Assembly: GCA_048213135.1 (NCBI GenBank)
Contig: PS015120.1
Coordinates: 116,743 to 158,562, forward strand
Source: Reclinomonas americana ATCC 50394
Lineage: Eukaryota
DNA: 41,820 nucleotides
Direction: 5' to 3'
This document shows positions 1 to 30,007 of the stretch, piece by piece. The translations under genes and the position numbers were made by a program. Every line of letters starts with the position of its first letter. Within the stretch, counting starts at the first letter, position 1. A model generated the notes under the pieces. The model searched no databases, was not told the DNA's origin, and saw only the letters and a program-made list of their open reading frames with translations.

Positions 1-3000
1 TCCGACTGCTGCAGGCACGCATCTACGACGTCGCGGTGTCGCCGCTCAACCCACTCACCGGCAACAACACGATCACCATTCAGTGGCGCTGCAGTGACCC
101 GCAGACCACCTCCGTTTCACTGATGGTTCCGGCGTCACCATCGGTCCCCATTGCCTCGCCAGTCCCCGTGGCGTGCGGCATCTCCTCGCCAGCCCTGCAA
201 ACGCGCACGTGGACCGTCTCCAGCCTGGCCGCCGGCTCGTGGTCAGTGCGTATCACGGACCTGTCGCGCTCGTGGCTGTACGGCGACAGCAACACATTTA
301 CTGTGCCAGGTGATTTTCCTTTCCGTGCACGGTCTCAGCGATGTGTTCTCAACAATTCTCTCTGCAGCTGCACAAATCTCTTCCGTGATTGTTGCGCCCG
401 TCTCCACCTCGGTCATCTATGCTGGCGCTGGCAGCACGATTGCGTGGCGCTGCTCGTCACCGTCTGTTGCGTCTGCATGTATTGACATGGGTGCTGGCGC
501 CTGCTTTTCACCTCTAACTTCTTCGTGTCCATCTGGCAGACGACCTCGGTCACGCTGACTGTGGCCGACGGCATCACCATTCCATTCGGCTCGCCGTTGA
601 TGATTGGCACGGCGGCAGCCTCATGCGACTCAGTGCTCCTGCACGACAAGCTCAACGTGTACAACTGGACACCGGACACTAGCACACTCGGCGCCAACTT
701 TGTGGTCACGGTGGCCGCTGGAAGCGTCACCGCCTCATCTGGACATTTCACCGTCTACAAGCGCAGTATCACCGTGTCCACTGCCTCGTTGGTCGCCGTT
801 TACTTGGACTACCCGCTGCAAGTGACGTGGACGTGCCAATACGAGGGCACCACAGCGGTCGACATCCTCATCACGGATGCCGTATCCGGTTCCACGTTGG
901 CCACCGCCGTGTCCATGTATCCGACCACGTGCGCCGCGCTCAATCCCACGACGCAGACCTACACGTGGAGTAGCGCAAGCAGCGCGCTGCTCAGTGGCTC
1001 CGCAAATGTGATTCTGGTGGTGCGCGATTCGTCCGACGGAACCGTCGTTGGGTCGTCCACATCGCTGCCGGTGCGCAAGGCCATCTCCAATGTCACGGTG
1101 CCGGTGGCGTCGCCGCCGAGCATCGCGGTGATTGGTCGCAGTTACACCATCACCTGGCAGTGCGACAACAATCTCGGCGGTACCACACTGGCGACTCTGG
1201 AGGTCCTCCTTGTGCCGGCCACAGGCAGTGGCGGAACCGCGGTTCGCGTGGACTCGCTGCCTGGCGCCGTGTGCTCCGGCTTCCCGTCGTACCGATGGAC
1301 GGCCTCGGCAGCGTACACACTCGCCGCCACCTCCTACGTGTGGATGGTGCGAGATGCGGATCGACCACTTGCGGGCCGCGCTGTGTCGTCGCCATTTACG
1401 TTGACAACGGGCGTGACCGGCGTCATGGTGGCGCCGATTGCGCCTTCGGTGGCTTTGGTGGCCGCTGGAACGGCACGCCTGTCGTGGAATGTTGCGCGCC
1501 TTTTGGAGTGCTTTTTTTCTCTCGGCGTGTGTGTGTGTTCACTCACCCGTCGTCATCGCGCACTACAGTGTTTCGATCCGGCAGTGTCCACCGTGCGCGT
1601 GACTCTGCTGCGGCAAGCACAAGCGTCGCTCTTCCTCGGCCAGTTTCCGAGTACGTGCTTCTCATCGGGTGCCGCCAACACGGTGACAATCAGCCTGCCT
1701 GTTTCAGCTGCCTCGCCCAGCGCCACATTCACCGTGGCAGATTCGGTCGTGGCTTCCGTGTCGGCAACCTCCGGCTCCATGGTCATTTCCGGTACGTAGT
1801 GGCATCACGGTAACATGCAAAATGCGCGTTCACTTCTTGACTACTGGTGACACACACAGCTCCGAGCGTTGTTGTGGTCTCGGTTGCGCCAGCTGCAACT
1901 GTGTACGCCTGTTCGACTTGCACTGCCACGGTCACGTTCTCGTGCAACACCGGAGCTGGTGTGGAGCTGCTGCTGGATCGCGGCGGACTGTTTACGCTCA
2001 TTGGCCCACTCACATCGGCACTCTGCTTCGCGGCATCGTCGGACGGTCACGGGTACCTGCAGACGCTGACGTGGAGCGTGTCGACACCTCTAGTGGGCAC
2101 TGGCGTGTCGTTGTTGGTGCGCTCGCTGTCCGATGCCGCACTCACCGGCTCGTCGGCCACCTTCAACGTCGTCGCCGCTGGATTCTCGCTGTCCTCCATC
2201 CAACCGGTGTATGCCGGCTACTCGCTGGCACTGTCCTTTGTTTGCTCCAACTCCAACACCAAGACCATCCAGGCTCAGCTCGGTGGCGCCATCCTCACCA
2301 CCAGTTATCCGATCGTTGCCTCTGTGGCCAACACAGCCGTGTGGGGTCCCATTCCCGTGTCCATGACGGGCATGTCGGTGTCGCTGAGCCTGCAGGATAC
2401 TGCCGACTCTGCGGTCAGCACCGTTTTCCCGGGCATTGCCGTGCTGCCTACAGTCAGCAGCGTCACCACCAGCTCATCAGTGATTCAATACGGCTCGGTG
2501 CTGACCATCAACTGGGTGTGCGATGGAGCCAATAGCGCCGTCGGGCCGATCGAGGTGGTTGCCGTTACGCAAGTGACGCTTGCACCCACGGCCGTGTCGT
2601 CGACTCCTTCGGGGAGCACAGTGGCCAGCGGAGTGGCGTGCGCCGGCGCAGGTACTGCTTCGTGGACTGTGCCGAGCAATTTCCCGGTGGGTGCGGCAGT
2701 GATTATTGTCCGCGACGCCCGGAATGCCAGCGTTGCCGCACAGAGCAGTACTGTGTATGTGGTGGCCGGCTTGCTGTCCTTGGTGAACGTGGCGCCGATG
2801 CCGCTGTCACCAGGCAGCGTGGTGACGGTGTCGTTTGTTGTCGGAGACTCGGCGCTGACGACTGTGGTGGAGTTGTGGGTGTTGCCGAGTGCTGGTGTCA
2901 GCTTCATGGCGGCCAGTGTGGCGGCCACCGCAGGTGCAGCGCAGTGGACAGTGCCTCGTGCGTTTGCCGATCCTGCAGTGCAGTTCCAGGTGTGTGTTGA

Positions 3001-6000
3001 GAGAGAATGAGTGTGTATTGCCCGTGGTCAAGCTTGTTCACCGGTGGTGGTGCAGATTGTCGATCCCATGCGCACCTTCCTGGTCGACACCAGTGCGCCA
3101 TTCACCATTCCTGGTTGCGTGCCAGTCCAACTTGCTGTACTCCGTTCTCCCATATTCTGTGTTCCACTGACGCGTGCCTGCACCAGCCGTCTCGCTGTCG
3201 CTCCTGCCATTGAACCTGGCGGTGTCGGTGACCGGCGTTCCGATTACCATTCAAGCCACATGCAACTCGCCCACATCGGCGCCACTCACTGTCACAGCCA
3301 ATGGCGTGCCGCTGGGTACCATGACCGGCGTGTGCGCAGTCGGCGCCGCTGCCAGCACGCTCACGTGGACGCCGACAGCTCCCTCTGCCAACACCGTCAT
3401 TACGGTCACCGACGCCGTCGGTGTCACGTCCAGCAGTTCGCCGCTGGTGATTGTCGGTGAGTGCCTGTTGTTTTTCTCAGTGCCTCCTTCCTATTCTCTC
3501 CCGCCTGGCGATTCACACATGCGACACAGATCGCCTGTCTGTCGATGTCAACACTCCGTTCCCTCCGACGGTCGGCGGTCGTGCGTTCCCGTTTTACACG
3601 TACTCGGTGATGGTACAGTGCCGGCTGAGTGCCGCGCAGAATGCACGATTGGATTTGGTCGACGTTGGCACAGGAGTTGTGACCAGCACCATCTTTGCCA
3701 GCACTCGCGTACAATGCGGCTCGGCCACGGTGCCGGCGGGAACACTGCTGACGGTGCTGATGCCGAACGTGCCCTCGTCAACGTATCGACTGGAGCTCTC
3801 CGACGTTGCGCTGCCAAGTGTGCGCTACACGACGGCAAGCTTTACCGTCACTCGTTGCGTCGCCGCATTGGATGAGCGTCTTGCTGTTTACCGTCGTCGC
3901 CTCACACTTGTGGTGGTGTTTGTCTGTATACGCAGCCACACTCTTCATGCCAACGCCGTCTGTGCCGGCGGTGCTGCTTGCCGGCGTCCCGGTGAGCGTC
4001 TCATACGGCTGCCAACCGAACCCGCTCATCAGCTATGCCCGCATGACCTTGTTGGATGCGTCGACCCTGCGCACCGTGCAAGACTTTGGCCTGGTGACTC
4101 CGTTCACGTGCTCGAACTTGACGCCTCTTCCCACGTGGGTGTGGAGCATGCCAGCGCCATCGCCTCCCACAACCACCTATCTGCTACAACTGAGCGATGA
4201 CAATGTGCCGCAAGCGTTTGTGCGCACCACCGCGTTCACCTTTCAGAGTGCGTCGTCACTCTTAATTTTTCGTCGTCGCTCTTGATCTGCACGCTAAATT
4301 CTTGATCCAATCTCCTGCCGTAGCTCCATCGCTGGCCTTTGAGCCGCGTGCCATTGGCGCCGAAGTGTACCCACCAACAGTGTATGTCGGCCAGCCATAC
4401 TCTCTGCAGTGGATGTGCGACTATCCGGGTCTGGCGTCGCGTGCTGCCTCATTTGATGTGGTGCTGGAAGCTGTCGGTGTGGACAACTCGGCTGTGGCGA
4501 TTGCTTGTGAGTACGAAGAGACATCTTGCACATATTTATATCTCTCTTTCTGTTCCTCTGCCCTCATGCGCTTCACCGTAGCCTCGCTGGGAGCCACTTG
4601 CGATGGCAGCGCTGGGGCGCAAGCGACCATCACCTGGCGACCGACGGCGGTGACCAACACCACGCTGCGTTACCAGATGCGTGTCACGGACTCGGTGCGC
4701 GGTCTCACCAACGTCACCGACTCGTTCTACATTCAAGGTGATTAGTGATGGCGCACGTCGCCACTCACCGCCCATTTACTGACTTGCTCGCCGTCGCCGC
4801 CGCACAGAGTCGACCATTTCGTTGTTGCCTTTGTCGGCCGCGTCACGAATGCTCTTCTTCAACTACACCTCCACTATTCTTCAATTCACGTGCAACGATC
4901 CACAGACCACGGCTGTGGATGCGGTGGTGTACGAGGGAACCAGCGTGGTGGCTACGATTGCTCGCTCCCTCTCCGTGACCTGCTCACCAACCATGAGGCC
5001 GGTGTCGACACGCTGGACGCCTTCATCACGCAACGCTCGCGTCGCACAGCAAGCGTACCTGGTGGTCACAGATTCGAACCGACCAACGTACGTGGTGCCG
5101 GCGCAGTCGGAGACATTTCCGATCTTGTCGTCGCCACTGTCGGTGATTTCACCGCTGTCGGGCGCGTTGCTGGCGTCGCACGAGCCCGCCGTATTCAGCT
5201 GGCGCTGCTGGTCGACAGTGATCGAACGTGTGCATGTATACTTGCGGCGAGGCGTGGAGCGCTTTGCTGTGGCACTCGATGTGCCGGCGCGGTGTGGAGT
5301 TGACGACAGCGGCAACAATCTCGTGCGGTCAGTCGACGCGCATATTGCCACATCTTTGCATGCTCGTACTTGATGCACTAAAGTCGTATTGGTGGCGCAG
5401 GTGGACGTCGGTGGACGTGGATCGCGGTGCAAACAGCAACGACACCGACACCGTGTATTTGGAGTTGGTGGACGCGCGGACGAATTACACGACAGTCGGC
5501 GCCACGTACGGCTTGACGTACCGTCAAGTGTCGCTGGTGGATCTCGATCAACCCATGCCAGTGGTAACCGTCGCCGTGCAGCAGTCAGTGCAGTTCCGCT
5601 GCACTCGTGCAGCTATGAAGCGTGCGCATGTGCTGCTGCACCAAATCGACGGACCTGGCACGCAGCTCGCGTCGGCAGAGAGTCGAGTTCCCACCAGTTT
5701 CGTGGTGGATGTGTGCCTTCAGTTCTTTTTGAGGGGATGCTTATGCTCGCATACGCAGTCACGGCGGGCGGCTTGTCGACCGTGGCCTCGTCGAGTTTGA
5801 ATCAGCGTTTCTGGATCGTTGGCTACAATACGACGGCTGTGTGCGATTCGAATGCGCGAATCCACCTGACTGCAGGTCAGTTTCCGGTGTTTGTGTGCGT
5901 GTGTCCCTCCAGTACAGTTATGCCTGACTTGTGCCGTAGCCGATACTTCTGACCCGCTGACCAATGAGGTTTTCTGGCGTCTGGACCCTTCGTTCCAAAC

Positions 6001-14939: not shown

Positions 14940-15103
14940 AACGTGTGCAGAATTGTGTTGTATGAGGGTCAGAAGGTGTGCGCGGGACTTGGTGAACGAG
15001 GGTACAGCACTTTGCTGTCGAGCTGGAGGCGGGTGAGGCACAATTGAGACACGCGAGCTTTGTCCCGCGCGGCTCTTGGCCTTTTAATCATAATCTTTTC
15101 ACG

Positions 15104-17258
15104 ATGTCGAGATTTAAGAACACCCCTGAGCTGAACAAGAAGCACACGGCCATCCTCAACACGCTGCTCACACAGCCAGATAACAAAGTGTGCGCTGATT
15201 GCAACGCGAAGGGTGAGCGTCATCATCTCTCTTTGTATGTGTGTGTATGTGTGTGCGTGCGGAAGAAGGAGGAGAAAGAAGAGAGGGCGAGAGAGCAACG
15301 CACGCGCGCACTCCTCCCCAAGTGTGCTGGCGTCAGTTGATGATGGCCACGTGCCATGTCACACAGGCACTCACACGCAGAGAGAGAGCAGATAGCACGC
15401 GCCTCTCTTACATCTCACACGTGCATCACGTGTGTGTATACGTGACATGATCAATATGTGTTTTCCGATCTTTGCTCACACGCGCACAAATAACTCCTCT
15501 CTCTATCTCTCACATTCACCAGGTCCACGATGGGCGTCGATCAACCACGGCTGCTTCATCTGCATTCGCTGCTCGGGCATCCACCGCAACCTCGGAGTTN
15601 NNNNNNNNNNNNNNNNNNNNNNNNNNNNNNNNNNNNNNNNNNNNNNNNNNNNNNNNNNNNNNNNNNNNNNNNNNNNNNNNNNNNNNNNNNNNNNNNNNNN
15701 NNNNNNNNNNNNNNNNNNNNNNNNNNNNNNNNNNNNNNNNNNNNNNNNNNNNNNNNNNNNNNNNNNNNNNNNNNNNNNNNNNNNNNNNNNNNNNNNNNNN
15801 NNNNNNNNNNNNNNNNNNNNNNNNNNNNNNNNNNNNNNNNNNNNNNNNNNNNNNNNNNNNNNNNNNNNNNNNNNNNNNNNNNNNNNNNNNNNNNNNNNNN
15901 NNNNNNNNNNNNNNNNNNNNNNNNNNNNNNNNNNNNNNNNNNNNNNNNNNNNNNNNNNNNNNNNNNNNNNNNNNNNNNNNNNNNNNNNNNNNNCACATCT
16001 CCAAGGTCCGCTCGACCACGCTGGACACGTGGGCGCCGGAGACGATTGAATTCATGCAGCAGAATGGCAACGCGCTGGTGAACTCGCGCTTCGAGGCCAA
16101 GCTCGACCAGTCGCAGAAGCCCACAGAGAACACAGACGATCGACGGACAGAGGAGTTTATCCGTGCCAAGTACGAGCACCGCAGGTGGTACGCGGATGGA
16201 GCCTCGTCGCCGGCGCTGGAGGAGGAGGAGGAGTATGTGGAGCGCAAGAAGAAGCGCCGATCGAAGCGCCGCGATGAGGAGGATGAGCAGCGGTTGGAGG
16301 CCACGTCGTCGCCGGTGGTGGACGAGCCGCGTCGTCCGCGCACCAGGGAATCGTCGTCGAGGTCGGGCGGTGGCGAGTCGCGACAGAGCCAGCGTGAGGC
16401 GCAGCCNNNNNNNNNNNNNNNNNNNNNNNNNNNNNNNNNNNNNNNNNNNNNNNNNNNNNNNNNNNNNNNNNNNNNNNNNNNNNNNNNNNNNNNNNNNNNN
16501 NNNNNNNNNNNNNNNNNNNNNNNNNNNNNNNNNNNNNNNNNNNNNNNNNNNNNNNNNNNNNNNNNNNNNNNNNNNNNNNNNNNNNNNNNNNNNNNNNNNN
16601 NNNNNNNNNNNNNNNNNNNNNNNNNGGCGATGGCTGCTCCGGCGCCCACCAAGAAGGCCGCCAAGCCGGCCGAACAGGAGCTGGAGGATGCCTTTGGCTT
16701 TGTGTCGGTGTCGGATCGCAATCCAGTGTCGGGTGATGGTGAGAGGAGGAGAGAGGCAAATGGGGGAAAGAGCAGCAGTAGCTCACGCGCATGCTCTCTC
16801 TCTCTATCCCTCTCTCTCCAGACTTGTTCATGGTTCCGGAGGACGCCAAGAAAAAGTCGTCGATCATGAGTCTGTTTGACGAGAAGCCAGCGGCCGGTGC
16901 GCAAGTGCCGCCCGGACAGATGGCTCCCGCAGGAGCTCCGCAGCACCACTTTGCGGGCATGATGGCACCGGCCGGTGCGCGCCCGCCAATGGGATTCGCC
17001 GGGCAGCCGATGATGATGATGCCGCCGGGAGGCATGCCGATGATGGGAGGAGCGCAGCCGGCATTTGCAGGCATGATGGCTCAGCCGATGATGATGGGCA
17101 TGCCCATGGGAATGGCCATGCCCGTGCAGAGCGGGTACGCCGGCATGATGCAGGCGCCGCAGGGTGGCATGATGCAGCCGCAAATGATGGGTGGCGGCAT
17201 GGGAATGGGCATGGGCATGAATATGGGCATGGGCTACGGCGGTGGCTTCCCGCGCTGA
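15104..17258 (+). CDS. ArfGAP domain protein, SMAP1/2 (AGD5-like) type; interrupted by two assembly gaps
   Basis: [49 protein letters not shown]...GN...EEFIRAKYE is the ArfGAP C4 zinc finger with the catalytic Arg. KKSSIMSLF and a Met/Gly/Pro-rich tail are typical of SMAP proteins. Confidence 0.93.
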
Positions 17259-18999
17259 GGCGGACCCACTGCGGAAGACGCATGCCGATAGAGAGAAACG
17301 TTTGATTGCTGGTTTGCTCTTTTTTCCGACCTCCTGCTTCCGCCTTTTCCACCCCTTTTTTGCGTGTGTGTGTGTGTGTGTGTATGTGCTGCTTGCTGCA
17401 TAGTGTATATGCGACATTATTTTCGCTGTTTTATGTCTTGGTGGTGGTGGGTGATGGTGAAGCAGATGTGCTGTTTGGTTTGAGTCCCTCATGCTCGGCC
17501 AGTCGCGCCATGAGCGCCTCTGGCCGGTGTCCTCGAACCAGCAACGCGTCTACCTCGTCATCCTGTACAACCATGGAGTGAGAAGACAGAAGGAGAGTGA
17601 CGAGGGAAGAGTGACGCGNNNNNNNNNNNNNNNNNNNNNNNNNNNNNNNNNNNNNNNNNNNNNNNNNNNNNNNNNNNNNNNNNNNNNNNNNNNNNNNNNN
17701 NNNNNNNNNNNNNNNNNNNNNNNNNNNNNNNNNNNNNNNNNNNNNNNNNNNNNNNNNNNNNNNNNNNNNNNNNNNNNNNNNNNNNNNNNNNNNNNNNNNN
17801 NNNNNNNNNNNNNNNNNNNNNNNNNNNNNNNNNNNNNNNNNNNNNNNNNNNNNNNNNNNNNNNNNNNNNNNNNNNNNNNNNNNNNNNNNNNNNNNNNNNN
17901 NNNNNNNNNNNNNNNNNNNNNNNNNNNNNNNNNNNNNNNNNNNNNNNNNNNNNNNNNNNNNNNNNNNNNNNNNNNNNNNNNNNNNNNNNNNNNNNNNNNN
18001 NNNNNNNNNNNNNNNNNNNNNNNNNNNNNNNNNNNNNNNNNNNNNNNNNNNNNNNNNNNNNNNNNNNNNNNNNNNNNNNNNNNNNNNNNNNNNNNNNNNN
18101 NNNNNNNNNNNNNNNNNNNNNNNNNNNNNNNNNNNNNNNNNNNNNNNNNNNNNNNNNNNNNNNNNNNNNNNNNNNNNNNNNNNNNNNNNNNNNNNNNNNN
18201 NNNNNNNNNNNNNNNNNNNNNNNNNNNNNNNNNNNNNNNNNNNNNNNNNNNNNNNNNNNNNNNNNNNNNNNNNNNNNNNNNNNNNNNNNNNNNNNNNNNN
18301 NNNNNNNNNNNNNNNNNNNNNNNNNNNNNNNNNNNNNNNNNNNNNNNNNNNNNNNNNNNNCCACGCGGAGGCGATGCGGCGGGCGGGGTCGGCGGTGGTC
18401 CGTCCTCCAACCCGGCGAATGAGTTGAAGGCGCTGGCCATGGACCCGCCGCTCTCGGCCACGGCGTCGGCCGAAGCCATGGGAACGGCGGCGGCGGCGAT
18501 CGGGACGAGTGTGGTGGCCGATCAGCGACGGCGGCTGCGTGCGCTGGGCGAGACACTGACGCCGCTGCGTGTGGTCGACGAGATTGTGTGCGAACTGACG
18601 GTGCGCGANNNNNNNNNNNNNNNNNNNNNNNNNNNNNNNNNNNNNNNNNNNNNNNNNNNNNNNNNNNNNNNNNNNNNNNNNNNNNNNNNNNNNNNNNNNN
18701 NNNNNNNNNNNNNNNNNNNNNNNNNNNNNNNNNNNNNNNNNNNNNNNNNNNNNNNNNNNNNNNNNNNNNNNNNNNNNNNNNNNNNNNNNNNNNNNNNNNN
18801 NNNNNNNNNNNNNNNNNNNNNNNNNNNNNNNNNNNNNNNNNNNNNNNNNNNNNNNNNNNNNNNNNNNNNNNNNNNNNNNNNNNNNNNNNNNNNNNNNNNN
18901 NNNNNNNNNNNNNNNNNNNNNNNNNNNNNNNNNNNNNNNNNNNNNNNNNNNNNNNNNNNNNNNNNNNNNNNNNNNNNNNNNNNNNNNNNNNNNNNNNNN
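15600..18999. other. Four assembly gaps (N runs) at 15600-15993, 16407-16625, 17619-18360 and 18609-18999
   Basis: Seen directly. Confidence 1.
17491..18608 (+). CDS. Fragments of an unknown gene broken by assembly gaps
   Basis: MLGQSRHERLWPVSSNQQRVYLVILYNHG is followed by a GTGAGA donor. The island 18361-18608 is coding-like on + (…DQRRRLRALGETLTPLRVVDEIVCELTVR). Start, end and linkage of the pieces are unresolved. Confidence 0.35.
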
Positions 19000-19445
19000 C
19001 GAGCGCGGCACTGCGCCCAAGTTGCGTCGCAGGACCTCGAACTCGCGGTACTTATACAGCAGCATAAAAGCACTCGGATCGGCGCGCATGTTCACCAGCA
19101 CGTGATGCTTGAATGCAGGCACCTCGGTGCTCTGCACGGAGCCACGCACGAATCGCAGATGGCGAGTGGAGGGCACGGTGACGTCCTGGTGGGCAGGGTG
19201 TGAGGAGGGAAGGGGAAGGGGAGAGGGAAGGGAAGGGCATGTATGCATTGTCACCTTGATGTAGTCGTGCCATGCAAAGTCTTGCACGACACGCGAGAGC
19301 ACACGCGCAGCCGACAATGCTTGCAGTCTCTTGACGCGCACCACGTACCAACGGAATGGGGAGCTGCGCGGCGGTGGTGATTGCAGGTGAGAGCGGTGTG
19401 AGGGAGGGAGGGAGGAAAGGAGAAGAACCTGGCGAGCGGAATCAT
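19000..19445 (-). CDS. nusG: Bacterial-type transcription elongation/antitermination factor NusG, N-terminal (NGN) domain; 3' part lost in gap
   Basis: Exons 19445-19429, 19363-19255 and 19185-19000 give MIPLASSPFRWYVVRVKRLQALSAARVLSRVVQDFAWHDYIKDVTVPSTRHLRFVRGSVQSTEVPAFKHHVLVNMRADPSAFMLLYKYREFEVLRRNLGAVPRS. From RWYVV to VLVxM it aligns without gaps to the recalled E. coli NusG (RWYVV..L..D..V.VP..G..E..F..VLV.M). The start exon is less certain. Confidence 0.75.
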
Positions 19446-19649
19446 TGCGGCAAATGATTGAAATCTGCTTTCGTTTCTCGCACGTCCCACCGACTACGTG
19501 ACGACGGTCGATGGTCACTGCATGCTACAGCCATCAATCCAGACGCCTGTTCCTCCTTTCCCCACCGACCACAGCAGAATTTCTGTCAAATTTTTTCACT
19601 TGGAAACGTCGCAAGTGGAGAGACGCACTCTGCCACTCGCTGTCCAATA

Positions 19650-19685
<36 letters not shown>

Positions 19686-19729
19686 CTGTGCTACAGTCGG
19701 CGTGTATGTAAGTGTGTGTCCGTGCTGGC

Positions 19730-22339
19730 TTAGAATTTCAGCACGACCTTGCCGCCGCTGCGGAACGGTTGTTGGCTAAGCTCGAGCGCGCGCTCGAACT
19801 CGTTGAATGGTACCGATTGGACCTGCGTCTTGAGAGCGCCGCTCTTGATGAGGCCGAACAGCTCGTTCAACATGGCAGCCTTGTCGGCCGTCGAGTGCTG
19901 CTCCACCCATTTGGAGACCCAGAAACCGCGGAGAGAAATGTCGCGGAAAACAAGCGACGACGTCGACACTGTCACACCGTGCTTCGACATTCCACCGTAC
20001 GTCACCAGCGTGCCACCGGTACTGCAGTGCACAAAAGGTAAGCACGAAGCAAAAAAAAAAGGAAAAGGGAGGAAAGAAAAAAAGTGGCAAAAGCATACAA
20101 GCACTGGGGCTTCCCAAGTGGTCCCCCACCCTAGTACTGACCCAGCTGAACGCGGCTTAACTTCACAGATCGGACGGGATGTGGTGTTTTCCGCGTCATG
20201 TGGCCGTATGCGACTATTTGAGGGAAAGAGTGCACGGGGGGATTGCAGGAAGAGGAGAGTGGAAAGGAAAGAAAATGAACGAATGACGACAACAAATGAT
20301 CTCGTGAAGGGAGAGGGCACACGATGTCTGCAGGAACGGAGAGCGGGAAAGACACGATCCCGGACGGAGGAGGCTTGCAAGTATCAGCAATCTCTGCAAA
20401 GAAACGAGGGACTGCAGGGAGGGAGACAACCCCAGAAGACGAACAAAGATAAACATGACCTCTGCGTCCTTGCAGACAGACAGAGTGGATCGCAAGGGAC
20501 TGCAAGACGAGTTGAATGGAAAGGAGATACCACCAGAAGAAAGACGAACAAAGAAGAACATGATCTCTGCGTCCTTGCAGACAGACAGAGTGGATCGCAA
20601 GGGGGATTGCAGGAAGAGAAGTGGAATGGAGACATGATTCACCCCGACTCCAGAGGAGTGAAGAAGATAAGGACACAACTGATCTTTCAACAGACAGAAT
20701 GGATCGCAAGAGGAACTAGAAGAGCGATAAGGAGTCGTCAACCACCCCGCCTCCAGAGGAGTGAAGAAGAAGAAAAGGACACAAATGATCTCTGAGAAGA
20801 CAGAGTGGATCACAAGAGGAACTGAAGGAAGAAGAGTGATAAGGAGACACCAACTATCCAGACCTCAGAGGAATGACAAAAAAGACACAAATGATCTCTG
20901 AACAGGATCGCAAGAGGAACTGAAGAAAGAATAGTGATAAGGAGATGTCAACCACTCCGCCTCCAGATTGGGTGATCTTTCTTCTTCTTCCACCCTCCCT
21001 CCCCCTCCCCCCTCTCCCTCCTCCTCCTCCTCCTCCACCTTCCCCTCCATCGCCACCACCACCGCTACGCAACGCCAACAGATTAGCCAGGTTGGTGGCC
21101 GAGTCACCGCCCACAGCATTGAGGCCCAGCTTGGGCGCGGGGAGATCGCTGATCAGCTCGCGCATCTTGTGGCTCGCCGCGTACTTCTCCGTCACCACCA
21201 AATCACCGCCCAGCGACTTCAAATACTCGACCGTTTGCTCCTGGTCGGGTCGCTCGCGAATGACATTGATAGTACGCACGCCACGAGAGCGCGCAATCTG
21301 AATCACAGCCTGACCCACAGCGCTGTTGGCAGCATTCTGAATCACAGTGTCGCCTGTACCATGGAGCATGCGTGAGCCCGGCAGCTGCATGTCGCCACTA
21401 TCATCATCATCTTGGCGCGTACCCTTCTTGAGCTGCACAAAGTCACTCAGCAGCCGCAACGCCGTCGGCGGGTTGACCGAGATGGTGGCCAGCTGCTCAA
21501 CAGGGATATCCGCCGGCACCTTGATCAGCTGATCCACAGTCGCAATCGCATGCGTGCGCCACGTGCCTACCCGCATCGCGTCAGTACGAGCGAAGCACCA
21601 CCATCAACAATAACACCAACAGTTGCTCCTCACCAAACTGCGGTCGCGCAGGGATGACCACATCGCCAACAGCCAGGCCCTTGACACCCGCGCCCACAGC
21701 TTCCACGCGAGCAACACCCTCGCTGCCGCCAATCGCCGGCAACGAAGGCTTGGTGCCGTACCTGCACATGCATGAAACATCAGCACAACGAAGATTGATT
21801 GCAGTCGTGCTGATGTTTGACTGACCTGCCCTGCACAATGTTGATATCGGCCGGGTTGATGGAGGCCGCCAGCATGCGCACAAGCACCTCAGAGGCCTGC
21901 GGAGTGCCGACCTTTTCAGGTGCACGGCTGTGTGTGTGTGTGGAGCGCCATGTCAGTCACACACGCGCACACGCAAGACGCAGACGTGGAGGCAGACGTG
22001 TATGCACGTGCGTTTGTGCGTGTGCATTGCGAGCGTGGAGAGAGAGTGTGAGATAGAGAGAGCGCATACGTGACGTGCATGCATCTATTGTGCGCGAGTC
22101 TCTCACTGCACAACGACACACACACACACACGAGTCGCACACTGCCACCACGCACATTCACAGAGACAGACAGACGCACAAGCAGCGCCAAGAGAGACAC
22201 AAGATGGCGCGCACACAGTCATGTCCATGCCACACACACACACACAAACACAACGCAACCGCAACACCGCGCGCGGATCACCGTGCTCCGCAAAGCGCAC
22301 GGCCTGTGACGAGAACAACCGCCGTGCCGCAACAAGCAT
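19730..22339 (-). CDS. MECR: Mitochondrial trans-2-enoyl-ACP/CoA reductase (MDR family, mtFAS)
   Basis: Presequence [16 protein letters not shown]; motifs [95 protein letters not shown]. At least 5 introns, one of them 1052 nt (20022-21073). Confidence 0.96.
20092..20211 (-). rRNA. 5S ribosomal RNA gene, nested in MECR intron
   Basis: Reverse complement GCATACGGCCACATGACGCGGAAAACACCACATCCCGTCCGATCTGTGAAGTTAAGCCGCGTTCAGCTGGGTCAGTACTAGGGTGGGGGACCACTTGGGAAGCCCCAGTGCTTGTATGCT, about 120 nt. It has terminal helix GCATACGGC/GCTTGTATGC, conserved CCCGTCCGATC, GAAGTTAAGC, AGTACT and box C-like GGGTGGGGGACC, and is followed by T-runs (Pol III terminator). Confidence 0.95.
20235..20975. repeat. Degenerate ~106-bp tandem repeat (5 clear copies plus relics) immediately upstream of the 5S gene
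   Basis: GGATC(G/A)CAAG recurs at 20487, 20592, 20701, 20807 and 20905 (spacings 105, 109, 106, 98). TCTGCGTCCTTGCAGACAGACAGAGTGGATCGCAAGGG is exact at 20461 and 20566. ATGATCTC and CTCCAGAGGAGTGAAGAAGA also recur. Confidence 0.85.
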
Positions 22340-28381: not shown

Positions 28382-30007
28382 ATGTTCACTCGATTCAAGC
28401 AGGTACCTGCATGATCATGACACACTCTCTCTCTCTCTCACATACACATGCACACACCATGCACAAACACCCACACACACACACGCACACGTACACACAC
28501 ACACGCACACACACACACGCACACATACACACGCACACATCGTCGTCGCATCACACTCGAATCTCCGAGCACTGAATCTCTCTCTCTCTCTGTGTTCTCT
28601 TGTGGCTCTCAGCGATTCCGTGAGAAGCTTGTTGGCGCCGATCCGGCTCCCGTCCCCGAGGCGTACTCGCAGCTGAAAAAGGCGGTGAAGGAGGCCATTC
28701 AGCACTATGAGGATGTGGTCAAGTGCGGCAGATTGATGTGTCAAGCGAGTCAAGGTGGGTGAGAGAGAGAGAGAGAGAGAGAGAAGGAGGAGAAGGAAGA
28801 GAAGAAGAGGAAGGAGGAGAAGGAGAGGAAGGAGAGGAAGGAGAGAGGCATCGGAGAACGAAAACGGACATTGCAACACGAGACGATTCTTTGACAGTGA
28901 GAGAGGAGCGCGGCACTGTGGCTGCCTCCTCCTGTTCCGACAGACAAGTGACGATTCATCTGGTCGCTTCCTTGCTTATATTCTTCCATGCAGCCTTCGG
29001 CAACTGTGGAGAGGCCTTGGCGTGCTCCATGCGCGACTTTGGTATCGATCATCAGGAGTCGGCACTCGGTGAGTGGGGTGGTTGGCGTCGCTGCTGCTTC
29101 TCTGCACTGTGGCCATTCACCTTTTTGTTGCAGGCGGTGCGCTGACCCGCATCGGTGAGGGCCTCCACACGGTCTTCCTCAGTCAGCAGGCCATGTACTT
29201 GCGCACGGCGGATCACTTTATCGGACCTGCGATGGCGCTGCTGGAGGAACTCAAGAGCATCAAGGTTTCTGTCTCTCTCCCTCTGCTCCTCCCTCACTTC
29301 GCCACTCTCACTCTGCGATCCAGGAACAAAGACGGCGGTACCGAAGCACGCGACTGGAGTACTCGCACGCATTGCGAGCACTGGAGAAGCACCAGGCCTT
29401 GGCCACACCCAAAGCCGAGAAAATGCAGCGGGTGCGCTCTCAACCTCCCTTCTTTGTTTTCTGTTCTCTCTTCCTCACCTGCTCGTCCAGAAAACACAAA
29501 AGCTGCGCATGAAGGAGGAGCTTATGCGAGATTGCGAGAAATCCATCATGAAGCAGATGAACTATCTGCTGTACAAGCGCGACTTTGAGTACCTGGAGGG
29601 CAGTGTGCACCTATGTGAGGGCATCTCGGAGATGTTGGAGAAGGGCCACGAGGCCATGCAAGCGCTGAAACCGTTCTTGCAGGAGTACAGGCAATCGCTG
29701 GAGCAGGTCAGTCACTCCTTCTCCTGTTTTCGCATGTTGGGGGGCAGCGTTGCCTGATGCGCTGTCGCAGGCCAAGGCACGGCCGGGGGCGTACGTGGAG
29801 TCGCCAGCGCACCGGAGCCATCACGGCGCATCCATGTCGATGGGTGGCGAATCGTCGTCGTCGCCATACACGGACGACACCATGTCGGTCGGCACACCAA
29901 CGAGCCAACGGCCAGCAGCAGCACAAGACGGTGGGATCTCGGGACCACGACTCGTTCGCCAAGTCAGCGCGCCTCCAAGCGCCATGGGGGCGACGCACAG
30001 CCTATGA
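28382..30007 (+). CDS. N-BAR domain protein
   Basis: MFTRFKQ|RFREKLVG...LACSMRDFG..ESALGGALTRIGE...HFIGPAMALLEELKSIKEQRRRYRSTRLEY is a typical BAR pattern. Six GT-AG introns; Ser/Pro-rich tail; stop TGA at 30007. Confidence 0.8.

Follow-up and report, generated by a model that had tools for sequence, protein, structure and literature searches.

The window analysed in this study is a stretch of DNA of 41,820 nucleotides that contains four N runs. On its minus strand, positions 19000-19445 hold a NusG-like gene, the 3' side of which is truncated by one of these runs (18609-18999). One minus-strand frame runs open between 19524 and 18999, where the N gap is reached, and along it RWYVV (at ~19350) is followed by a Pro/Ser/Leu-rich stretch and then by a segment with VP.FKHH-VLV.M and LLYK. 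The preliminary description had placed a gene for a bacterial-type NusG at this position, which was confirmed, and the locus comprises the following features.

19429-19445, minus strand: putative first coding exon, with ATG at 19445, five codons and two bases
19364-19428, minus strand: putative intron 1, 65 nt, GT..AG, pyrimidine-rich, with a length that matches the local 64-69-nt introns
19255-19363, minus strand: exon 2, encoding strand beta-1 (RWYVV) and helix alpha-1 of the NGN domain; NusG HMM positions 8-39
19186-19254, minus strand: intron 2, 69 nt, GT..AG (GT 19254-19253, AG 19187-19186), in frame and stop-free
19000-19185, minus strand: exon 3, encoding beta-2, the bacterial-type beta-hairpin, beta-3 (FKHH-VLV-M), alpha-2 and beyond; NusG HMM positions 39-85
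18609-18999, no strand: assembly gap of 391 N, which must contain the 3' end of the NusG-like gene
19446-19735, minus strand: upstream spacer from the stop codon of the neighbouring MECR gene to the proposed start, with a (GT)15 microsatellite at 19653-19682

Exon-intron structure

An upstream spliced exon is needed for the start because the frame holding RWYVV has no in-frame ATG upstream. A scan of all right-phase ATG-to-GT combinations, taken over the 290 nt as far as the MECR stop codon, shows that only the ATG at 19445 gives a 65-nt intron in the right phase; an alternative start, ATG 19534, requires introns of 127-142 nt and supplies 9-14 codons. The first exon beginning at ATG 19445 and intron 1 are plausible and are treated as putative. 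Two spliceosomal introns had been proposed for this gene, and intron 2 was borne out by the codon score and by the removal of its 69 nt (GT..AG), after which a local NusG HMM scores the product at 32.0 bits instead of 18.0, whereas intron 1 remains only plausible. At least one short spliceosomal intron, and probably a second, thus interrupts the gene.

Codon usage was scored with a model trained on the neighbouring exons, a small training set, by which exons 2 and 3 reach +0.20 and +0.31 per codon, each being the best of six frames, the last 17 codons before the gap reach +0.45 and intron 2 read in frame gives -0.33. An interpretation of the 69 nt as an insert in the protein was rejected on the basis of this codon score, the HMM gain on removal and the loss of similarity to a relative, P0002, at the same boundary.

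Exon 3 is open into the assembly gap. The segment 18361-18608 was considered as the downstream part of the NusG-like gene and was rejected; because it scores best as plus-strand coding, the end of the minus-strand gene most likely falls in the gap, within ~390 nt. On the plus strand this segment forms an 82-codon open frame, isolated between two N gaps and with no Pfam family, which probably belongs to a gene that converges on the NusG-like one.

Nuclear linkage and neighbouring genes

Directly upstream of the NusG-like gene and on the same strand lies a gene for a mitochondrial-type trans-2-enoyl-CoA reductase (MECR), with its stop codon at 19733-19735, and the sequence is unbroken from 19000 upward into this gene. 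Alignment to three MECR homologues gives GT..AG introns of 64, 67 and 69 nt, the last of which (21422-21354, minus strand) is in frame and stop-free, and its removal yields a gapless alignment to all three homologues. Because the MECR introns measure 64-69 nt, the proposed introns of the NusG-like gene match the local size class; unlike the MECR introns in composition, the proposed 65- and 69-nt introns are pyrimidine-rich. The other genes of the window are eukaryotic, namely those for ELP6, a TLDc protein, an ArfGAP, a DCN1-like cullin-binding protein and a SWEET transporter, and a Pfam search of ~28 further window ORFs returned generic eukaryotic domains only. The NusG-like gene is nuclear, and bacterial contamination is excluded, because it is joined without a gap to eukaryotic genes with 64-69-nt introns. 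The earlier statement that this is not bacterial contamination is therefore upheld by the unbroken MECR linkage, by the local intron size class and by the local codon usage.

The genome of the host is GC-rich. Among the MECR homologues, the highest identities are 53-55% and occur in unrelated groups (streptophyte alga, oomycetes and vertebrates), the nearest named homologue being that of a streptophyte alga at 53%. The MECR of the jakobid Andalucia godoyi is 49% identical and does not group with the window MECR in a tree that is unresolved and that places the window MECR in no group. For the ELP6 of the window, the nearest ESM Atlas clusters are from a chordate, an arthropod and a diatom.

Several further features of the window were recorded. 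If read through, the 69-nt MECR intron appears as a 23-residue insert, and it resembles intron 2 of the NusG-like gene in size and phase behaviour; gene callers that ignore introns would translate through both of these 69-nt introns. The last MECR intron, of ~1 kb, contains a 5S rRNA gene that is complete and has the same orientation (20092-20211, minus strand; Rfam RF00001, 103 bits, model positions 1-120) followed by a T run. This large intron also holds two adjacent tandem arrays (20436-20827) with units of ~105-106 nt, 1.8-1.9 copies each and 84-86% matches.

Microsatellites of the (GT/AC)n and (CT/GA)n types and purine/pyrimidine tracts are common window-wide in spacers and introns, for example at 19653-19682, 22100-22300 and 28421-28759. 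When translated, such microsatellites give HTHT or SLSL runs in spurious ORFs, and these swamp a word-based protein search, as was seen for ELP6.

Two plus-strand loci lie nearer the start of the window. The ArfGAP-type gene (14996-17300) has a zinc-finger start motif at ~15300, a core at 15994-16407 and a low-complexity tail; it is broken by assembly gaps at 15600-15993 and 16407-16625, and its family was assigned by eye from the translation. Positions 1-6000 carry a long ORF run with repeated Ig-like modules and recurring motifs of the I.W.C.DPQTT type, which probably encodes a large repetitive surface or secreted protein; one weak Kre9/KNH-like Ig match was found there, with an E value of 2.8e-4 that lies under the cut-off.

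Relationship to the NGN domain of NusG

NusG/Spt5 is the only transcription factor family common to all domains of life, and the elements of its NGN domain follow the order beta1-alpha1-beta2-hairpin-beta3-alpha2-beta4. For comparison with the product of the window gene, a local NusG HMM of 179 positions was prepared from 19 non-redundant proteobacterial NusG sequences (<75% identity), reduced from 115 NusG-like proteins; the sources were 80 loci of gammaproteobacterial genomes and 30 loci from a phylum-wide sample of Pseudomonadota, in which the NusG family is present in 60 of 61 genomes, and the HMM accordingly spans Pseudomonadota only. The spliced product was assembled from the coordinates of exon 2 (19363-19255) and exon 3 (19185-19000). 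It scores 32.0-32.2 bits against this HMM and aligns without gaps over 78 residues (HMM positions 8-85), more than the ~66 gap-free residues claimed in the preliminary description, while the unspliced ORF reaches 18.0 bits, its match being broken into two pieces (4.0 and 12.3 bits). None of 2000 shuffles of the spliced product scored above 11.7 bits against the local HMM, the reversed sequence gave -1.8 bits, and the other 533 window ORF pieces of at least 50 aa reached 4.5 bits at best. When the candidate and P0002 were aligned together to the NusG alignment using hhalign, a probability of 96.3% was obtained (P 1.6e-9, 78 columns, 24% identity), and all 30 column-shuffled control alignments remained at or below 3.5% probability.

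Searches of general databases with the intron-containing frame gave lower scores. In Pfam, the unspliced ORF (P0001, 127 aa) matched the NusG family PF02357 with an E value of 0.019 and 15.9 bits, under the curated cut-off of 22.2 bits, and this match spans the 23-codon intron. No other family appeared for this ORF at E up to 10, including the Spt5-NGN family PF03439, and neither single exon gave a Pfam match. NCBIfam assigned no family, phmmer found no match among PDB sequences at E up to 10, and the same was true of a two-sequence profile of exon 3; a word-indexed homologue search with the unspliced ORF returned 47 candidates, none at E <=1. The profile assignment therefore holds for the spliced product, which is significant with both the local HMM and hhalign, whereas the Pfam match of the unspliced ORF is sub-threshold.

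In a low-confidence model the window protein appears to follow the secondary-structure order of bacterial NusG (PF02357 plus KOW, as in E. coli), and in the alignments it has, like bacterial NusG, a conserved core with RWYVV, VP, RG and VLV.M. The beta2-beta3 hairpin lies within the 78 gapless residues, and the bacterial length of this insert, which had been noted at the outset, is kept in both the HMM and the hhalign alignments. Spt5 of archaea and eukaryotes would have the superfamily fold in common with this domain; unlike the short beta2-beta3 connection of the Spt5 NGN, however, the window protein retains the full bacterial hairpin length. A bacterial-type rather than Spt5-type NGN is further indicated by PF02357 being the sole Pfam family up to E 10. 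The differences from E. coli NusG are considerable, with 19 of 78 residues identical (24%), a very basic visible part (pI 11.1 over 104 residues, the corresponding E. coli NusG stretch having 9.6) and a nuclear gene with spliceosomal introns. The motif changes described earlier are also seen in the alignments, with RLQA in place of SGFE and FKHH in place of FPGY. FPGY is a conserved NusG motif at the start of beta-3 and is present in E. coli NusG; it is kept neither in the window protein nor in P0002, where it is FRTH. Judged from these comparisons of sequence, the visible product of this gene is a genuine NGN domain, highly diverged but of bacterial NusG type.

It may be argued that the resemblance arose by chance or from an assembly artefact and that no NGN gene is present, as all database-wide scores on the genomic ORF are weak. 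However, the shuffle, other-ORF and hhalign controls, the independent relative P0002, the naming of the same family by four separate methods and the continuity of the sequence into a eukaryotic neighbour gene all oppose this explanation, which is very improbable.

A full HMMER scan of 1.84 billion representative proteins gave two matches at E <=0.001, P0002 and P0003, the query having contained intron 2, which reduces the sensitivity of the scan. P0003 is an unrelated repeat protein and was discarded as a relative. P0002 is a protein of 98 aa, the single member of its cluster, encoded on a metagenome contig of 1819 bp. It shares 27 of 68 residues (~40%) with exon 3 at a pairwise BLASTP E value of 2e-14, and 19 of 46 over the exon-3 part. 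The similarity ends exactly at the intron-2 boundary, and upstream of this boundary P0002 resembles a translated pyrimidine tract ending in Q; the position of intron 2 is probably common to both genes. The 19 residues that are invariant between the two proteins include the NusG core (VP, RG, F and LV.M), together with the lineage-specific VP.F[KR].H and LLYK. Scans of metagenome contigs gave 79 pattern matches with a profile of exon 3 and P0002 and 293 with P0002 alone, none of which was confirmed by tblastn, and a tblastn search of phages and plasmids was negative at E up to 1. Searching 1.84 billion representatives with the intron-containing query yielded a single relative, which marks the family as extremely rare.

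The conservation of the core in this distant relative argues for purifying selection and bears on whether the gene is a decaying, endosymbiont-derived relic or pseudogene that has lost its expression or function. The divergence of key motifs and the uncertainty of the 5' exon are in keeping with decay. Nevertheless, both exons are open with coding-type codon usage while intron 2 scores as non-coding, and a ~40%-identical protein that retains the core residues and probably the intron position is what purifying selection would be expected to leave; a relic is accordingly improbable.

Weaker lines of evidence were obtained from language and structure models. The three nearest clusters in the ESM Atlas are NusG families (0.85, 0.84 and 0.84), and the ten best family-carrying matches all belong to one family or clan; scores below 0.9 serve as leads only, and 157 features are shared compared with 170 typical of true family members. 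A single-sequence AlphaFold model has the NGN order of strands and helices but a poor mean pLDDT of 46.8. In Foldseek, ranks 1-9 are NusG or RfaH chains, none at E <=0.001, and the best match is a cyanobacterial elongation complex (E 3.3e-3, TM 0.47); no entry titled as an Spt4/5 structure occurs among the best 50 rows. The language-model features and the low-confidence fold appear to agree with a NusG-type NGN.

The nearest Atlas clusters consist of short NusG-family proteins (89-116 aa) from Bacillota and phages, comparable to the NGN-only NusG paralogues of bacteria and phages. This would fit a different history, in which an NGN-only module of short bacterial or phage type was repurposed or horizontally acquired, gained introns and would now act without a bacterial-type RNAP, for example on nucleic acid or on another polymerase. 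The alteration of the polymerase-side FPGY motif in both eukaryotic copies and the single relative in 1.84 billion representatives are consistent with such a history, as is the failure to see a presequence or a KOW domain in the 290-nt spacer and the window ORF pieces of at least 50 aa. On the other hand, the tblastn search of phages and plasmids (E up to 1) brought up no relative, the Atlas scores, being under 0.9, serve as leads only, a KOW domain could be encoded in the gapped 3' part, and the gapless bacterial beta-hairpin length suggests that a polymerase-binding architecture has been retained. Taken with these points, a repurposed module is unlikely, though less so than a relic.

Possible role and significance

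The ends of the protein bear on where it might act. Under the ATG 19445 model, nine residues precede RWYVV, close to the ~8 proposed previously, the exon itself being putative. An upstream exon in the 290-nt spacer can supply 5-14 codons at most, so that ~9-20 residues would precede the domain. With this putative 5' end, there appears to be no room upstream for a long presequence or transit peptide, which supports the earlier remark that no clear plastid or mitochondrial presequence is present, the 290 nt to the upstream stop codon being too short for a long one. The first 33 residues include six basic and no acidic residues. Such a basic N-terminus would agree with import into an organelle in the absence of a long extension, and it is compatible with, but not diagnostic of, mitochondrial import. 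Bacterial NusG carries a C-terminal KOW domain, whereas the visible part of the window gene encodes the NGN domain only. The full-length NusG HMM finds nothing above 4.5 bits in the 533 other window ORF pieces of at least 50 aa, and a KOW domain could only lie in the 391-N gap, which is roomy enough for a KOW domain or for none.

Nuclear-encoded bacterial-type NusG is a known kind of eukaryotic gene, to which the window gene belongs. To our knowledge, the bacterial form of NusG in eukaryotes has so far been documented only alongside a plastid polymerase. In bacteria, NusG contacts the clamp helices of beta-prime and the gate loop of beta through its NGN domain and favours elongation without pauses (PMC7593976). 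Three origins had been suggested at the outset for the window gene, namely a factor for a bacterial-type mitochondrial RNAP, a relic and a domesticated transfer; a plastid role was not weighed among them. The best explanation of the window gene, to which we assign a probability of about 0.55, is that it is a nuclear, diverged NGN gene whose product acts in a NusG-like manner on an organellar bacterial-type RNA polymerase; this role is the most likely because the bacterial architecture, including the hairpin length, has been kept. The protein would be imported into the organelle, where its NGN domain would bind the beta-prime clamp helices of a bacterial-type multisubunit RNAP and, once bound to the clamp, keep the organellar polymerase elongating; a KOW domain, if there is one, might mediate coupling. 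In a plastid-bearing host this polymerase would be the plastid-encoded one, and in a host that lacks plastids it would be a mitochondrial enzyme like that of jakobids.

Where a plastid is present, a role in it is the default, because nuclear bacterial-type NusG is documented in photosynthetic eukaryotes; it is reported from every major lineage of plants and algae as well as from photosynthetic chromists (PMC7593976, section 8). The window gene, in an algal host or in a different protist with a plastid, would then be an ordinary but unusually diverged plastid NusG of the pTAC13/AtNusG type that serves the plastid-encoded polymerase as elongation factor, a sub-case of the preferred organellar reading that is counted within it. 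The window protein is like plastid NusG in being a nuclear-encoded bacterial-type NGN protein of low identity to E. coli NusG (24%, compared with 22% for pTAC13, the chloroplast NusG of Arabidopsis; PMC9262611, PMC7593976), a likeness judged without sequence-to-sequence comparison, and the streptophyte-algal origin of the nearest named MECR homologue, at 53% identity, is a weak hint in the same direction. However, the transit peptide of AtNusG comprises 105 residues (PMC9262611), and with the putative 5' end no long transit peptide can be encoded in the window gene, where ~9-20 residues are possible. Furthermore, plants, algae and cyanobacteria contributed no NusG to the matches at E <=0.001 in the HMMER scan of 1.84 billion representatives, a scan made less sensitive by the intron that its query contained, and the MECR tree puts the host in no group. 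A plastid NusG is thus rather doubtful, if slightly less so than a repurposed module.

The organellar reading takes another form if the host is plastid-less. In concept, the window gene would be akin to the divergent GreA/GreB of Andalucia godoyi, which are nucleus-encoded helpers of a bacterial-type mitochondrial polymerase (PMC7050145); with respect to that system, the main text of PMC7050145 makes no mention of any NusG. A full-text literature search, covering main texts, found no NusG-type factor described for mitochondria or for non-photosynthetic eukaryotes, and the supplements of PMC7593976 and PMC7050145 may bear on this point. Among the texts found, the main text of PMC1950548 cites NusG for the KOW motif only, and that of PMC13289920 deals with Spt5 and RNA polymerase II factors. 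In a host without a plastid, the product would be either the first NusG-type factor of a mitochondrial bacterial-type RNAP beyond the jakobid descriptions or a bacterial NGN module re-deployed where no bacterial-type polymerase exists, a tentative proposal that we consider possible and a little less doubtful than a plastid NusG.

The significance of the gene consequently depends on the host, since a plastid-bearing host would make this copy ordinary and a plastid-less one would make it remarkable. If the host is an alga, the gene would represent a very diverged plastid NusG that is missed by standard searches because introns split the domain. If the plastid-less reading is true, it would define a very small family, of which 1.84 billion representative proteins include a single further member. 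Such a diverged copy, lacking a targeting extension and found in a lineage with no close match among the sampled groups, bears on the switch of mitochondria from a bacterial-type to a phage-type polymerase, and the NusG-like gene could be a surviving helper of the bacterial-type system or an example of the reuse of a module.
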